Shown here one piece after another: positions 25,760 to 55,889 of a stretch of DNA of 64,000 nucleotides (within the stretch, counting starts at the first letter, position 1; each line of letters starts with the position of its first letter). Below the pieces are notes generated by a model. That model saw nothing but the letters and a program-made list of their open reading frames with translations. It was not told where the DNA came from and searched no databases. The stretch comes from an uncultured Chloroflexia bacterium (lineage in GTDB: Bacteria; Chloroflexota; Anaerolineae; Anaerolineales; E44-bin32). Location of the stretch: the NCBI GenBank assembly GCA_963807065.1, contig CAWDZQ010000003.1:1056427-1120426 (forward strand). Reading direction: 5' to 3'. A program made the translations under genes and the position numbers.

Positions 25760-26011
25760 CTAGCTCTCAACCGTGGCTGAAGGGCCTCGCTTCTTGAAGC
25801 GATAGGTGATTCTGCCTCGCGACAGATCGTAGGGCGACAACTCCACCCGGACCCGATCCCCGAGGAGGATGCGAATGTAGTAACGCCGCATCTTTCCGGA
25901 GAGGTAGGCAAGGACCGGATGACCGTTGTCGAGCTCGACCCGGAACTGGGTTGCGGGCAGCGCTTCGATCACTGTGCCCTCGACCTCGATTTTATCTTCT
26001 TGCTTCGCCAT
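25760..26011 (-). CDS. infA: translation initiation factor IF-1 (with short C-terminal extension)
   Basis: 83 aa: [73 protein letters not shown]. Confidence 0.93.
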
Positions 26012-26059: not shown

Positions 26060-26272
26060 CTAGCGATCCCCGCGCTTTTCTTCTATCTTGCGTTGGCGGC
26101 GGCGCAGGCGGCGTATGGCCTTCTTGCGCTGGATGCGGCGTAGTTCGCTCTTAGACACAAACCATCGCTTGCGCCGAACCGTGCTGAGAATGCCGCTCTT
26201 GGCAACCTTCTTCCTGAATCTCTTCAGGAGTTGTTCTTGACTTTCGTTGGGCCGGAGGACAACTTTCGCCAT
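26060..26272 (-). CDS. rpsU: 30S ribosomal protein S21
   Basis: 70 aa: MAKVVLRPNESQEQLLKRFRKKVAKSGILSTVRRKRWFVSKSELRRIQRKKA...; AGGAGGTGA Shine-Dalgarno upstream. Confidence 0.93.
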   Translation of the reverse strand: MAKVVLRPNESQEQLLKRFRKKVAKSGILSTVRRKRWFVSKSELRRIQRKKAIRRLRRRQRKIEEKRGDR

Positions 26273-26372
26273 GCTTCGATGTCACCTCCTTCCTGCTATG
26301 CTGGATTTGAGATCCACACTGCGCCGGCTGCAGGAACCAAGCGCCCAACATCCGCGCTGTGCGTGCTGGCAC

Positions 26373-26408
26373 AAAAAAGACCGGCCAGCAGGATTTTGAG
26401 CCGACCGG
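26373..26408 (-). terminator. intrinsic terminator about 100 nt upstream of the rpsU start
   Basis: Minus strand: CCGGUCGGC-ucaaaauccu-GCUGGCCGG, a 9-bp stem including G-U pairs and therefore strand-specific. It is followed by UCUUUUUU. Confidence 0.6.
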
Positions 26409-26510
26409 ACTCTCAGAAGCATTCCGCTTTTGGACGAAGTAAAAGTCTACCCTGCCTTGGCCTACTCCCCTACTCGTCTCACCTGCGGTCGAATTACATC
26501 CTGCGAACGC
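26373..26510 (-). ncRNA. candidate small RNA or attenuating 5' leader of rpsU-infA (unclassified)
   Basis: Bounded by a perfect consensus promoter (26517-26545) and the terminator above. I found no ORF of useful length. Hand-folded helices include GACGAGUA/UACUUCGUC and GCGUUC/GAAUGC. I did not recognise the RNA family. Confidence 0.35.
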
Positions 26511-26516
26511 CCGGTC

Positions 26517-26545
26517 ATTATACCTGTGGCCCAAAAGGTTGTCAA
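26517..26545 (-). promoter_or_regulatory. consensus sigma-70 promoter (TTGACA-17-TATAAT)
   Basis: The minus strand reads TTGACA accttttgggccacagg TATAAT. Both hexamers are perfect and the spacer is 17 nt. Confidence 0.65.
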
Positions 26546-26812: not shown

Positions 26813-29800
26813 TTGGCAGGCCACCGACCAGAAAGATTGGAGCCCAGTTTGTCAAGCTCAACAAAGCAGACTCGAGGGTTGATCAGCAGTTTCTCAACGA
26901 TCACCCTCTTCGCTTGCCTGGCCCTGTTAGCCGCTCTCTTGCCTGGCTGGCATGCCTCGGCCGACAACGCGGGATATGCGCTCTCCTTCGATGGCCTGGA
27001 TGACCGGGTTGTCCTCGATTCGACATCCGACTTGTTTGGCGGGTCAAATTGGACATCTGAGAAAACGGTCACACTTTGGGTACATCCAGAAGGAAGCTCA
27101 TCTCCGGCCACCTCCCCCGAGAGTGGTCAGATCCTGGTGGGCAATGACAGACCACACACCTTCGGCGTCTCTCGGGCAACCTTCAACGGCGCTGACCGTT
27201 TATGGATTTGGAACGCCGACGACAACGGGCTGGATGTCATTGGTGTTGACTTTCAAGTTGGAGAATGGATCCAGCTGGCCCTGGTCCATCACTCAGGGAT
27301 GCTGTCGGCCTATAAGAACGGCGAACTGGTTGGCCAGATAGCCAGCAATGCGACCTATCTTCCCAGCGCCTCTGCTTCAGGCACGCTCTATATCGGGGGA
27401 AATTCGAAGGGCAACACCTCCGCTGCGTTTCGAGGCGAGATCGATGAGGTTCGTTTTTGGAACACGGCTTTAAGCCAAACTGAGATCCAGAATTGGATGA
27501 ATCGCGAACTGGATTCGGGTCATCCCTCCTATGGCGACCTGGCAGCCTACTATCAGATGTCGAACGGCTCCGGAACACTGCTTGGCGACGATAGCGGTCA
27601 GGGCAACGACGGAAGTCTGCTGGGCGGAATGGGCGATCAGAGTTGGGTGGCCTCGGGTGCGTTCCTGACCACAGGCAACACGCCTACTCCCACTCCGATA
27701 CTTCCCAGCCAGACACCGTCAGGGACACCTGTACCGCCGTCGCCAACCCCAGAATCGCCGACGCCCACACCAACTGAAGTTCCTCCGAGCCCAACAGCAA
27801 CTTTCACCATAGAGCCACCATCGGCCACAAGCACTTCGGCCACGGCGACAGGTTCAGCTACCAATTCTCCACCAACATTCACCTTCACGCCATCAGCGAC
27901 GGCTTCTCCCACGCCGACCGATGCCCCACCTACCTTGACCCCCAGTTCGGTGCCCTCGGCAACCGCCTCCCCAACGCCGTCCAGTACGCCCACCTCTTCC
28001 ACCACACCGGTGTCATCCGGGGCAGGCTACGCTCTCGACTTTGACGGTAACAACGACTTTGTCGAGCTCCCGACAACCCACTCGATTTTTGGCGATGGGT
28101 GGGAAGACACTATGACCGTCAGCCTGTGGGTGAAACCCGACAGCTTCGCCGGCGCTTGTGAGCACAATCATCCGGCATGGTGTAACAATGTCCTCGGTGA
28201 TCGTCCTAGATGGTGGGGCATATCCATTGGCGAAGTCGTCGGGCTGGATCGTATCTGGGTGTGGAACTATGACGGATCGGCAACGTCACCGATTGACATG
28301 ATCCCCATCGACTACACTCCCGGGGAGTGGGTCCATGTCGCCTTGGTGCATTCCGGCGGGATGCTTCGCGCTTACCGCAACGGCGTCCAAGTGGGCGCCC
28401 TACCGAGCGGGACAACACTCCAACCCAACACAGGTGCCCTGCCCCAAGTCAACATGGGGGGCATCATCAACAGCAGCACCAGGAACTGGACCTTCGATGG
28501 CCAGATAGATGAGGTTCGGCTGTGGTCGACCGCCCGATCCGCCGAAGAGATACAGGCCGATCTCTTTCATCCCATCAACAAGTCCTCACCCAACCTTGCG
28601 GCCTATTACATGATGTCGGACGGCAGCGGGAGCATCCTGACAGATGACACCGGCCATGGAAATGTGGGTGTCTTGTATGACGGGGCGCGTGGCGTTGCTC
28701 CGGATGGGAGCCCCCCTCAATGGGTGAACTCTACCGCGCCCCTTGACAATATCGCCCCGACTGAATCTCCCACCGAAACGCCTACCGGGACTCCGACATC
28801 TGGTCCATCGCCCACGGCATCTCAGACGTCCGCTCCTACGTCCACACCGACTGCCACAGCTGTACCCCCATCACCCACACCGACAGAAATAGCGGCAAGC
28901 GCCACCCCTTCGGCTTCCCCGACCATAACCCAGACCCCGACCTGGACCTACACGCCGTCACCATCTCCGACCGCCGGCCCCGGTTTGATGGAAATCGCGG
29001 TTCAAAACACTTCGGGCAGCGCATATGATCTCGCCTTGGCGGGCAACTACGCCTATGTAGCGGCCACCACAGGTGGCCTGCGGGTCATCGACGTTTCTGA
29101 TCCATGGAATCCCATCGAAGTCGGGTCATTCCCCACGGCCACTCGGGCATACGGTGTCGACGTCGACAATGGTATCGCCTATCTCTCCGCCTCTTCCAGT
29201 GGCGTCTACGTGATTGATGTTTCCGACCCGTCGTCGCCCACCCTCTTGACCACTTTTCAGTCGGGTGGCTTTGCGTGGGATGTGACGGTCTATGGCGGCT
29301 ACCTCTTTGTTGCAGACAGGTCTGATGGCCTGCATATCATCGATATTTCGAACCCTGCCACACCCCAACAGGTCGGGTTCATCCCCAGTCCCGATCAAAC
29401 CCTCGACGTGGCTTTCTATGGAACGACGATGTATGTCGACCAGTCCCTGGCGGGCATTCAGATCGTTGACATATCTGACCCAACAAATGCCCAAATCGTA
29501 GGCAGCGTGGCGACGAACCAGACCTACGGAGTGGCCGTCCGTGACGGTCAGCTTTTCGTGGCTGACGGCGGGTTCGGGCTGCGTGTCTTTGACATAAACG
29601 ACCCCCTGGCTCCGACGGAAGTAGGCAGTTTCATCACAGGGGGTTCGACAAGGAGCACGTGGAACGAAGGTCCCGTCACTTTTATCGCCGACTGGAGCAC
29701 GGGGATCTTCGCCGTCGACTCCGCCAATCCTGGCGCGATCACGCTGCTGGACAACCTCGACCCACCAGGCCGCGCACGGGATGTCTTGGTTCGGGATGGG

Positions 29801-29854
29801 ATCGTGTTTCTGGCAGATTACGACGGAGGGCTCCGCCTTTTCACCGGACCCTAG
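26813..29854 (+). CDS. large secreted protein: two LamG-like (Laminin_G_3 / concanavalin-type) domains, Pro/Thr-rich linkers, and a C-terminal LVIVD-repeat beta-propeller
   Basis: 1013-aa ORF (TTG start). An alternative TTG at 26849 has a GGAG Shine-Dalgarno and gives (M)SSSTKQTRGLISSFSTITLFACLALLAALLPGWHASA, a signal peptide. There are two repeats of ...GYAL.FDG.DD.V......FG.......T...WV.P...IDEVR.W... At least five LVIVD-type repeats follow (GLRVIDVSDPWNPIEVG, GVYVIDVSDPSSPTLL, GLHIIDISNPATPQQVG, GIQIVDISDPTNAQIVG, GLRVFDINDPLAPTEVG). Confidence 0.85.
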   Translation: MAGHRPERLEPSLSSSTKQTRGLISSFSTITLFACLALLAALLPGWHASADNAGYALSFDGLDDRVVLDSTSDLFGGSNWTSEKTVTLWVHPEGSSSPATSPESGQILVGNDRPHTFGVSRATFNGADRLWIWNADDNGLDVIGVDFQVGEWIQLALVHHSGMLSAYKNGELVGQIASNATYLPSASASGTLYIGGNSKGNTSAAFRGEIDEVRFWNTALSQTEIQNWMNRELDSGHPSYGDLAAYYQMSNGSGTLLGDDSGQGNDGSLLGGMGDQSWVASGAFLTTGNTPTPTPILPSQTPSGTPVPPSPTPESPTPTPTEVPPSPTATFTIEPPSATSTSATATGSATNSPPTFTFTPSATASPTPTDAPPTLTPSSVPSATASPTPSSTPTSSTTPVSSGAGYALDFDGNNDFVELPTTHSIFGDGWEDTMTVSLWVKPDSFAGACEHNHPAWCNNVLGDRPRWWGISIGEVVGLDRIWVWNYDGSATSPIDMIPIDYTPGEWVHVALVHSGGMLRAYRNGVQVGALPSGTTLQPNTGALPQVNMGGIINSSTRNWTFDGQIDEVRLWSTARSAEEIQADLFHPINKSSPNLAAYYMMSDGSGSILTDDTGHGNVGVLYDGARGVAPDGSPPQWVNSTAPLDNIAPTESPTETPTGTPTSGPSPTASQTSAPTSTPTATAVPPSPTPTEIAASATPSASPTITQTPTWTYTPSPSPTAGPGLMEIAVQNTSGSAYDLALAGNYAYVAATTGGLRVIDVSDPWNPIEVGSFPTATRAYGVDVDNGIAYLSASSSGVYVIDVSDPSSPTLLTTFQSGGFAWDVTVYGGYLFVADRSDGLHIIDISNPATPQQVGFIPSPDQTLDVAFYGTTMYVDQSLAGIQIVDISDPTNAQIVGSVATNQTYGVAVRDGQLFVADGGFGLRVFDINDPLAPTEVGSFITGGSTRSTWNEGPVTFIADWSTGIFAVDSANPGAITLLDNLDPPGRARDVLVRDGIVFLADYDGGLRLFTGP
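27677..28020 (+). other. low-complexity Pro/Thr/Ser-rich linker coding region (linker 1)
   Basis: Encodes NTPTPTPILPSQTPSGTPVPPSPTPESPTPTPTEVPPSPTATF...SATASPTPSSTPTSSTTPVSS. Confidence 0.8.
28756..28980 (+). other. low-complexity Pro/Thr/Ser-rich linker coding region (linker 2)
   Basis: Encodes PTESPTETPTGTPTSGPSPTASQTSAPTSTPTATAVPPSPTPTEIAASATPSASPTITQTPTWTYTPSPSPTA. Confidence 0.8.
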
Positions 29855-54680: not shown

Positions 54681-55889
54681 CTAGTCAGCCGGAGACAGAG
54701 ATGCGGGCTCGGACAGCGGGTGGCGAGCGCCCAACAGGCGACGATAGATCCTGACGTAACGCTGGATCGTGCTCTCGACCTGGTGGGGCGCCACGCGCTC
54801 AAGACTGGCTTTGCCCATCTCCGGCCAACGACCCCGTTCATCCACCAGCCGCTCCATATGTCTTGCGCAATCGGCCGGATCTCCTGGCTCGAAGAGGTAG
54901 CCGTTGACCCCGGGATCGACCAACTCCGGCAGAGCTTGAGCGTTTGCCGCCAGCACCGGTTTTCCCGAGGCCATCGCCTCGAGGGTAGCTATGCTTTGGA
55001 GCTCGGCTTCGCTGGGCATCATGAAGACATCGGAGGCGCAAAGCAAGCCCGGCAGGGCTTCATTGGGCACGTAGCCCGTAAAGACCACCCGATCTTCCAA
55101 ACCGAGAGAAGCCGCCAGTTGGCGCAGGCTGGACTCCAATCGTCCCCTGCCTACCACCACCAGATGGATCGTCGGGCGTGTTTCGGTCAGCGCCCGCATG
55201 GCGACTTCAATGTGCTTCTCTTCATCTAATCGGCCCACAAACAAGAAAACCTCTGCTTGCGTGGCTATGCCGTACTTCCGGCGGACGGCGTCCCTGTCGC
55301 TGTGGGAGTTCGGCTCGAAGCGCTCACGGGATACCCCGCACGAGATCGCATGCAGCGGGACGTCAAGTGCCTGTTCCTTCAGAATGGCCACCGCAGTCCG
55401 GCTGGGTGCCGTGACAGCGTCCAACTTGCCGTACAGGCTCAGCATCGTCCACCACAGGAATCGGGTGAGTGCGCTTCGTCCGGACTTGAACGGGAGAACA
55501 AAGCCGATCACGTTGGCCGGCATGAAGTGATTGGTACCCACCACGGGGAGACCCCGGCGGCGGGCGAGCCGCACCACGGTTCGGGACAGGGGATAGTGAT
55601 CCTGGATATGCACGACATCCGGTTGAAAGTTGTTCATTATCGCCCCTACCCGTGGGCCCGGCACCACAGCGTAGAGGGCTTCTCGTATCCGAGGATCCAC
55701 AGGGATGGCGGTGAGATATTCTATTCGGACGCCGTTTCGATCTTCCTCGCAAGCCCGCAGCTCGTTGGACGGTGTGAGCATCACGACGTTGTGTCCGGCG
55801 GACGCCAAACCCTCAGCCAGTTGGGTGGTGAATACTGCCTGACCGTTTGCGTGCGGCTTGTAGGTTTGACCTGCAATCAGAATGCGCAA
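54681..55889 (-). CDS. glycosyltransferase family 4 (GT-B, group 1)
   Basis: 402-aa ORF: MRILIAGQTYKPHANGQAVFT..., C-terminal FMMPSEAELQSIATLEAMASGKPVLA (E-x7-E region). Confidence 0.9.
   Translation of the reverse strand: MRILIAGQTYKPHANGQAVFTTQLAEGLASAGHNVVMLTPSNELRACEEDRNGVRIEYLTAIPVDPRIREALYAVVPGPRVGAIMNNFQPDVVHIQDHYPLSRTVVRLARRRGLPVVGTNHFMPANVIGFVLPFKSGRSALTRFLWWTMLSLYGKLDAVTAPSRTAVAILKEQALDVPLHAISCGVSRERFEPNSHSDRDAVRRKYGIATQAEVFLFVGRLDEEKHIEVAMRALTETRPTIHLVVVGRGRLESSLRQLAASLGLEDRVVFTGYVPNEALPGLLCASDVFMMPSEAELQSIATLEAMASGKPVLAANAQALPELVDPGVNGYLFEPGDPADCARHMERLVDERGRWPEMGKASLERVAPHQVESTIQRYVRIYRRLLGARHPLSEPASLSPAD

Follow-up and report, generated by a model that had tools for sequence, protein, structure and literature searches.

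Leaders of ribosomal operons usually work through feedback by a product of the operon. The L20 leader of Firmicutes contains a long-range pairing across the leader, and in pyrG of Bacillus subtilis anti-termination is brought about by the nascent transcript's own 5' end, which pairs with the terminator hairpin, the pairing strand being a poly-G tract that arises from CTP-sensitive reiterative transcription. To our knowledge, no conserved RNA operator is known for bS21 (S21, encoded by rpsU) or for initiation factor IF1 (encoded by infA), and ribosomal-operon leaders outside the Proteobacteria and Firmicutes are poorly charted, those of the Chloroflexota being essentially unexplored. Here we describe a leader RNA encoded directly upstream of the rpsU-infA operon in a 64 kb stretch of DNA (64,000 nt of contig CAWDZQ010000003.1, hereafter the window) from an uncultured bacterium of the Anaerolineae (Chloroflexota), together with its counterparts in related loci.

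Among the closest described systems, the Firmicutes L10 leader employs a protein complex that stabilises an anti-anti-terminator and promotes termination (PMC10931766). Feedback by bS21 through its own mRNA leader has been documented in Flavobacterium and Francisella (PMC9976891; PMC13374519). In Flavobacterium johnsoniae, an extended Shine-Dalgarno (SD) sequence on rpsU is read by ribosomes that lack bS21 (PMC9976891; PMC13000457); in ordinary ribosomes, the two helices of bS21 form a V that accommodates the SD/anti-SD helix (PMC13000457). In Francisella tularensis, the bS21 mRNA leader of rpsU2 suffices for bS21-dependent repression of mRNA abundance, an effect that the authors ascribe at least partly to mRNA stability and on which the stem-loops of the mRNA are reported to have no influence (PMC13374519).

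The leader and its distribution in the Anaerolineae

As judged by comparison of upstream regions, the leader represents a new, previously undescribed family of probable attenuator leaders, which stands before one ribosomal operon in more than 130 related Anaerolineae loci. The S21 protein assigns the window to the Anaerolineales. The comparison drew on 160 S21-anchored loci (80 from species-representative genomes and 80 from metagenomes) and on 42 further loci obtained by exact-protein look-ups of the closest S21 variants. A unit of promoter, leader and hairpin lies at the 5' end of the operon, on the same strand, in 131 of the 138 evaluable S21-anchored loci, and such a conserved structured 5' untranslated region (UTR) at the head of a ribosomal-protein operon is one of the features expected of an autoregulatory ribosomal-protein leader. 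In 87 of the 160 loci, this unit of consensus promoter, leader and hairpin with a U-run immediately precedes rpsU, and direct inspection located it before an S1-like gene in 44. The first-pass annotation of the window, made from the sequence without database searches, had suggested looking for conservation and covariation upstream of rpsU in relatives; both were found, the former in these 131 of 138 loci and the latter in the three alignments described below.

The operon in relatives reads (S1-like)-rpsU-infA, with infA next to rpsU in 186 of the 188 loci that have room for it. The element had been annotated as a possible leader of rpsU-infA; in about one third of the relatives, the S1-like gene heads the operon and the leader stands in front of that gene, so that it is no leader of rpsU in the strict sense. 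The S1-like product has four domains (386 aa in locus L007; relatives are numbered with L), and its best NCBIfam match is 30S S1, below the cutoff; the window lineage has lost this gene from the operon. In the S1-type loci (L005-L029 and L081-L112), the leader is found ~1.2-1.3 kb upstream of rpsU, for example at 1175-1345 in L007. The notion that many relatives are devoid of the leader was accordingly rejected, the leader there being ~1.3 kb upstream, before the S1-like gene. R1, a covariance model built from the window subfamily, matches the leaders before the S1-like gene in L110, L112, L102, L086, L007 and L014. A blastn search with the leader matched only L001-L003 and L046 among the relatives, and the family emerged through S21 anchoring and reading of the upstream regions. 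No second leader copy was detected by R1 in the 64 kb window, nor any extra copy in ~600 kb of S21-anchored loci, all of them gathered through S21, with copies elsewhere in those genomes lying outside the search. A weak 15-bit match of a second model, R2 (see below), at 55040-55087 on the minus strand of the window is a terminator-like hairpin ending in GCCGGGCUU and no second leader copy.

In the window, the promoter before rpsU matches TTGACA-17-TATAAT at 12 of 12 positions on the minus strand and is the sole match in the 64 kb even with one mismatch allowed (0.02 expected by chance), just as the first-pass annotation had singled it out; consensus promoters of this kind are also present in more than 100 related loci. 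Transcription is predicted to start at the octamer GCGUUCGC, the positions of which are nearly invariant columns in alignments A3 and A4, and GCG(U/C)U begins exactly 6 nt past the -10 hexamer in 70 promoters of related loci. The downstream intrinsic terminator has a 9-bp stem that includes two G-U pairs, which makes it strand-specific, and ends in U6, as annotated; a simple terminator scan missed the hairpin only because its loop is 10 nt long. The terminated product would be ~137 nt, so that the unit stands as annotated and the length given for it (~130 nt, with the terminator 100-130 nt downstream) has to be revised. The U-tract ends 100 nt before the rpsU ATG (26272), and no promoter-like site was found in this spacer, which agrees with the annotated gap of ~100 nt and the failure to see a second promoter there. 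A GC-rich hairpin with a U-tract thus separates the promoter from the regulated open reading frame (ORF), as expected of an attenuator.

Among relatives, the leader is 123-257 nt long and the gap between hairpin and start codon is usually 25-60 nt (median ~50, range 24-121 nt); the terminator-rpsU spacer is variable in sequence. A gap of the usual size is too small to hold another promoter, and in most loci the genes behind it would have to be reached by read-through; expression of rpsU-infA probably depends on read-through.

The statement that the RNA belongs to no recognisable Rfam family was borne out by database scans. The leader region gave no match in Rfam 15 even at E<=10 other than chance hits (toga_FSE, with 20 bits against a gathering score of 40). 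A scan of the whole window at the gathering threshold returned only a SAM riboswitch and no match to the leader, and a scan of 20 related loci returned rRNA matches only. No S21 or Chloroflexi leader was found in the literature on motif discovery that could be searched. CsrA sites (GGA motifs), 6S RNA, SRP RNA and T-box elements were considered and dropped, their defining features not being seen.

Two mutually exclusive folds

The complete window RNA prefers the terminator fold (-47.9 kcal/mol). When the 3' arm of the terminator is withheld, as if RNA polymerase had only just completed the loop, the RNA is predicted to fold into an anti-terminator rod of -37.6 to -38.7 kcal/mol, in which GCAGGAU near the 5' end pairs with AUCCUGC of the loop and UCGACCG pairs with CGGUCGG of the 5' arm. 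This anti-terminator spans ~110 nt, and its pairings and the terminator exclude each other, as is required of an attenuator. The first of these pairings had been put forward as a conceivable alternative in the first-pass annotation; it was correctly placed, is conserved with compensatory changes and forms part of the anti-terminator. The same annotation had folded two further helices by hand. One of them, GACGA/UCGUC, is retained in 15 of the 16 type-A sequences of alignment A3, and its counterpart in L004 is, by eye, fully compensated (AACCAA/UUGGUU). The other, GCGUUC/GAAUGC, is included in the minimum free energy (MFE) fold of the window leader and is not retained in the nearest relatives (L178 and L166); its hexamers reappear in S1-type leaders, where GAAUGCGC in the terminator loop pairs with the 5'-terminal GCGUUC.

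The 5'-end/loop helix changes in sequence from one relative to another. L001 carries GCAGGUUC/GAACCUGC, an A-U to U-A swap relative to GCAGGAU/AUCCUGC, and L166 lengthens the helix to GCAGGAUG/CAUCCUGC; other versions are CGUUCGUGGACU/AGUCCGCGAACG (L045), AAUCGCGG/CCGCGAUU (L030), GACGUUU/AAACGUC (L061) and CGCUUGCCU/AGGCAAGCG (L019). The family comprises two large groups, one that includes the window type and the S1-type (R1 group) and one that consists of types B and C (R2 group). For 30 of 34 type B/C leaders, the structure formed before the 3' arm is made is closed by a helix of nt 3-10 with the end of the terminator loop, and in many of them the anti-terminator fold is the MFE of the full-length RNA. 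On geometric grounds the long-range helix is probably an anti-terminator, since a 10-13-bp helix that uses the whole of a 13-nt loop excludes a closed 9-bp stem. Features common to both groups are the promoter, the GCGUUCGC motif at the 5' end, the pairing of the 5' end with the terminator loop and an AGGAG...GC...GUAUC core; this shared architecture and the shared GCGUUCGC motif make a common origin likely, though not proven.

Covariation was assessed in three independent MAFFT alignments, none of which was fitted to the structure, with slid helices and 500 shuffles as controls. In A3 (window subfamily, 16 sequences), 82% of the cells are paired, compared with 29-51% in slid controls, and 9 pairs are changed on both sides (1/500 shuffles). 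The corresponding values for A2 (type B, 16 sequences) are 81.5%, 35-44% and 19 pairs (0/500 shuffles), and those for A4 (20 sequences, namely 18 S1-type leaders, the window and L003) are 77%, 31-45% and 15 pairs (1/500 shuffles). Helix 1 of A3 is the GCAGGAU/AUCCUGC pairing; helix 2, UCGACCG/CGGUCGG, is 85.7% paired, both partners having changed in three pairs; in L002, L003 and L136, G-C to A-U swaps turn it into CAACCGG/CCGGUUG. For A2, the 5'-end/loop helix, a second helix and the terminator were tested together, written as a pseudoknot; both partners have changed in 8 of 11 pairs of the 5'-end/loop helix, and the terminator reaches 93% pairing. The terminator of A4 is 94% paired with covariation, one pair being UA in 11 sequences and CG in 6. 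The sequence of the terminator stem is itself unusually conserved. RNAalifold returns only the terminator from the MAFFT alignments because the two folds compete. Each 5' segment pairs better with its own terminator than with that of another leader (p = 3e-6 ungapped, p = 0.002 with RNAduplex), a significant but weak signal, its weakness being due to motifs that the loops share. Taken together, the alignments indicate that two mutually exclusive folds are conserved and that the alternative pairing is under selection.

Table 1. Positions of the leader, its parts and the operon in the window (ranges with the higher number first are given in the direction of transcription)
Feature	Position	Strand	Remarks
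-35 hexamer TTGACA	26540-26545	-	Consensus promoter element
-10 hexamer TATAAT	26517-26522	-	Spacer to -35 of 17 bp
Whole leader, match to covariance model R1	26373-26512	-	142.6 bits, E = 1.6e-26; circular score, the window sequence being part of the R1 seed alignment A3
5'-terminal octamer GCGUUCGC	26503-26510	-	Begins 6 nt past the -10 hexamer, predicted +1
Anti-terminator 5' strand b, GCAGGAU	26498-26504	-	Pairs with AUCCUGC, 26388-26394
Anti-terminator 5' strand c, UCGACCG	26486-26492	-	Pairs with CGGUCGG, 26401-26407, in the terminator 5' arm
Putative sensor hairpin	26433-26478	-	Stem GACGA 26478-26474 / UCGUC 26437-26433; encloses the conserved core
Purine-rich core GGGGAGUAGGCCAAGGCAGGGUAGAC	26445-26470	-	Invariant GGAG at 26468-26465
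GAAUGC	26419-26424	-	Complementary to 5'-terminal GCGUUC; part of the MFE fold
Intrinsic terminator	26373-26408	-	Hairpin followed by U6
Terminator 5' arm CCGGUCGGC	26408-26400	-	
Terminator loop UCAAAAUCCU	26399-26390	-	10 nt
Terminator 3' arm GCUGGCCGG	26389-26381	-	
U6 tract	26378-26373	-	After the terminator hairpin
Spacer between terminator and rpsU	26273-26372	-	Contains Shine-Dalgarno AAGGAGGUGA
rpsU	26060-26272	-	bS21, 70 aa; Pfam Ribosomal_S21 recorded on an identical protein
infA	25760-26011	-	IF1, 83 aa; next after rpsU
Operon-end terminator	25727-25702	-	Closes rpsU-infA

The central domain, the effector and rival explanations

Between the anti-terminator strands lies a hairpin with a purine-rich core, in which GGAG is followed by GCC-purines-GC and then by G(G)UA. 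In A3 and A4, the GGAG and GCC columns show no variation, and the window core GGGGAGUAGGCCAAGGCAGGGUAGAC aligns column by column with its S1-type counterpart GAGGAGUGAGCCGAAGCAGGUAUCC. Outside the core, subfamilies differ widely in the length and helices of the central domain, and only the short motifs GGAG, GC and GUAUC are constant. GGAG is predicted to pair with a pyrimidine-rich strand with a mean probability of 0.67-0.84; its predicted partner in the window is the pyrimidine run ACUUUUACUUC (26446-26436), and across the family the strand reads ACUUC or ACUUU (window subfamily), ACUCCUU (several S1-type leaders) or GCUCUU on the 5' side (type B). A GGAG/pyrimidine duplex that resembles an SD/anti-SD helix is predicted in most leaders, with a varying partner, and the GGAG hairpin is the putative sensor that sets the choice of fold. 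The ACAAGG...GUAUCGG arrangement may resemble the h44-h45 junction of 16S rRNA. A leader-peptide attenuator was considered and rejected: the window has no start codon at a usable distance from GGAG, and in type B the AUY or UUG frames are of non-conserved length (3 codons in L123, 12 in L138 and open in L035).

We propose that RNA synthesis starts at the constitutive consensus promoter and that the first ~25 nt of the transcript can pair with the 5' arm and loop of the downstream terminator. If this long-range helix forms as the loop emerges, the hairpin would be unable to close and RNA polymerase would read into rpsU-infA; if it does not form, the hairpin and U6 would release the ~137-nt transcript. 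The hairpin between the anti-terminator strands, with its GGAG core paired to the pyrimidine run, would serve as the sensor, so that the choice between the two folds would be regulated. As a first guess, free bS21 might recognise the SD/anti-SD-like duplex and favour termination, resulting in autogenous feedback. That the leader is a regulated attenuator is highly probable in our view. That it acts in cis on the transcription of rpsU-infA with a product of the operon as the effector is the reading we prefer, with less assurance. The choice of bS21 as this effector is tentative: it is favoured by the habit of ribosomal-protein leaders, the autoregulation in Flavobacterium and Francisella, the position of bS21 at the SD/anti-SD helix and the similar duplex predicted in the leader. 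A bolder and still more speculative version would see in the leader a structured RNA operator, the first for bS21, that is built around an internal SD/anti-SD mimic and on which the S1-like protein may also act. Free bS21, or a 30S subunit with an available anti-SD tail, would then set the transcription of the S1-like/S21/IF1 operon, and the output device would be unusual in that templated 5'-terminal nucleotides pair with the terminator loop.

Several observations weigh against this preferred reading of a cis-acting attenuator under feedback by an operon product. The single-sequence fold energy of the window leader is unexceptional (z = -0.97), for which reason the case rests on the comparative data. 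The transcription start, the termination efficiency and the read-through are all inferred. The partner of GGAG switches side between subfamilies and is weak in some. R1 and R2 fail to cross-detect the two large groups. A conserved anti-anti-terminator was looked for in type B/C leaders and not found, and the anti-terminator of these leaders is already the MFE fold, leaving no evident route for factor-enforced termination. In L021, L023, L024, L027, L029, L084 and L110, the hairpin before the S1-like gene has an interrupted U-run or none (CCAGGUGAUUUCAUUU, CCAGGCCGCAUUGUU); in loci of this kind it may be no intrinsic terminator and may act on translation or through Rho. As for the effector, bS21 is a late-assembling and weakly specific RNA binder, and the S1-like protein or IF1 could be equally placed, because the first gene is S1-like in one third of the loci.

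An alternative that we regard as unlikely is a switch that works without a protein, either as a race set by temperature or RNA polymerase speed, in the manner of a cold-shock-type attenuator for genes of RNA-binding initiation proteins, or as a riboswitch in which a metabolite or ion binds the GGAG core. The layout of promoter, aptamer and terminator with two conserved exclusive folds is classic riboswitch architecture, the formation of an anti-terminator that spans ~110 nt should be kinetically sensitive, and the missing anti-anti-terminator of types B and C would be no difficulty; IF1, moreover, has an OB fold like that of CspA, and cold induces S21 in cyanobacteria. What speaks for a protein or ribosome as ligand rather than a small-molecule pocket is the variability of the central domain, which differs greatly in length and shape between subfamilies (125-257 nt) and keeps only GGAG, GC and GUAUC constant. 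The leader also matches no Rfam riboswitch, and the regulated genes encode translation components, which are typically under protein control.

The first-pass annotation had offered two choices, a stand-alone small RNA (sRNA) and an attenuator of rpsU-infA; co-orientation, the short gap and the covarying alternative pairing point to the attenuator. A functional ~137-nt terminated transcript, acting for example as an SD-mimic decoy in trans with its position next to rpsU incidental or co-regulatory, is improbable, even though the unit has a perfect promoter and a terminator of its own, an unusually conserved terminator stem and an SD-like AGGAG in its core. In all 131 loci the unit runs in the direction of the same operon and directly precedes it, irrespective of whether rpsU or the S1-like gene comes first; most loci have too little space before the start codon for a second promoter; the conserved anti-terminator is meaningful only for a decision in cis; and R1 found no extra copies in the window or in the ~600 kb of loci, which were all gathered through S21. 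Processive antitermination by Nus factors, in which, as in rRNA operons, a boxA-like element would serve to modify RNA polymerase for passage through the terminator, is very improbable. Type B/C leaders (for example L123, L042, L160 and L040) carry YGCUCUU(A/U)UA just past the 5' strand, which agrees at the first six positions with GYTCTTTAANA, the boxA consensus of gamma-proteobacteria (10.1101/091223), a consensus that may differ from that of the Anaerolineae, and 23S-5S genes are directly upstream of the leader promoter in five relatives. There is, however, no GYUCUU in the window leader or in its whole subfamily, and the GCUCUU segment of type B is a strand of a covarying helix with GAGAGC, with UA/CG swaps.

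Surroundings of the operon and relation to known leaders

At the start of rpsU, most loci among the upstream regions inspected carry an extended SD sequence 8-15 nt before the start codon (26281-26290 in the window), typically (A)GGAGGUGA, which is complementary to the whole 16S 3' tail; GGGGGUGA, GAGGUGA and other variants occur in a minority. The infA gene of the window also carries GGAGG, so strong SD sequences may simply be usual in this organism. Upstream of the leader promoter, rRNA genes were detected in five relatives (L030 1-2178, L039 1-2233, L069 1-2261, L048 1-532 and L035 1-63). The 23S and 5S rRNA genes end ~30 nt (L030, L039 and L069) to ~50 nt (L035) before the promoter, which places the rpsU-infA unit of these five relatives immediately downstream of an rRNA operon. 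In the window, an ORF divergent from the leader promoter (26813-29854, plus strand) encodes a protein of 1013 aa, in which two laminin-G-like modules and C-terminal LVIVD repeats are accompanied by long linkers rich in Pro, Thr and Ser, according to the Pfam families recorded on the identical locus L161. Relatives have a phosphoribosyltransferase gene in this position, or transposases (L167, L174 and L186). Farther away, the SAM-I riboswitch (87 bits, 43669-43781, minus strand) is directly upstream of metK, the gene for a 408-aa SAM synthetase (ORF 42369-43595, minus strand), which is an ordinary and known arrangement.

More than 130 natural variants are available in this leader family, which shows clear two-state covariation and would control three exchangeable components of the 30S initiation site, namely the S1-like protein, S21 and IF1. 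The family would thus be a tractable system for the question of how cells balance late-binding small-subunit proteins, and a clear case of an attenuator in which the very 5' end of the transcript serves as anti-terminator. The family could enter Rfam and improve the annotation of Anaerolineae genomes.

Like the Firmicutes leaders for L20 (infC-rpmI-rplT) and L10 (rplJL), the present leader is the 5' UTR of a translation operon in which a terminator is combined with a competing structure. It differs from both in that Rfam scans revealed no sequence or covariance-model similarity, in that the operon encodes S1-like protein, S21 and IF1, with only a candidate effector, and in that the strand acting as anti-terminator is the 5' terminus of the RNA and pairs with the terminator loop or 5' arm. 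With bS21 autoregulation in F. johnsoniae it shares rpsU, the SD/anti-SD chemistry and the presence of bS21 at the SD/anti-SD helix (PMC9976891; PMC13000457). The mechanism of F. johnsoniae is translational, needs a Bacteroidia-specific sequestration of the anti-SD and involves no structured leader or terminator, whereas the decision here would fall at a terminator upstream of the ribosome-binding site, in an organism for which strong SD sequences are normal. For rpsU2 of F. tularensis, which belongs to an unrelated phylum, no conserved terminator/anti-terminator pair is described in the study concerned (PMC13374519). Finally, in contrast to pyrG, the 5' strand of the present leader is templated and covarying, with no homopolymer at +1, and the likeness lies in the device itself, the 5' end of the transcript being used as the anti-terminator in both.

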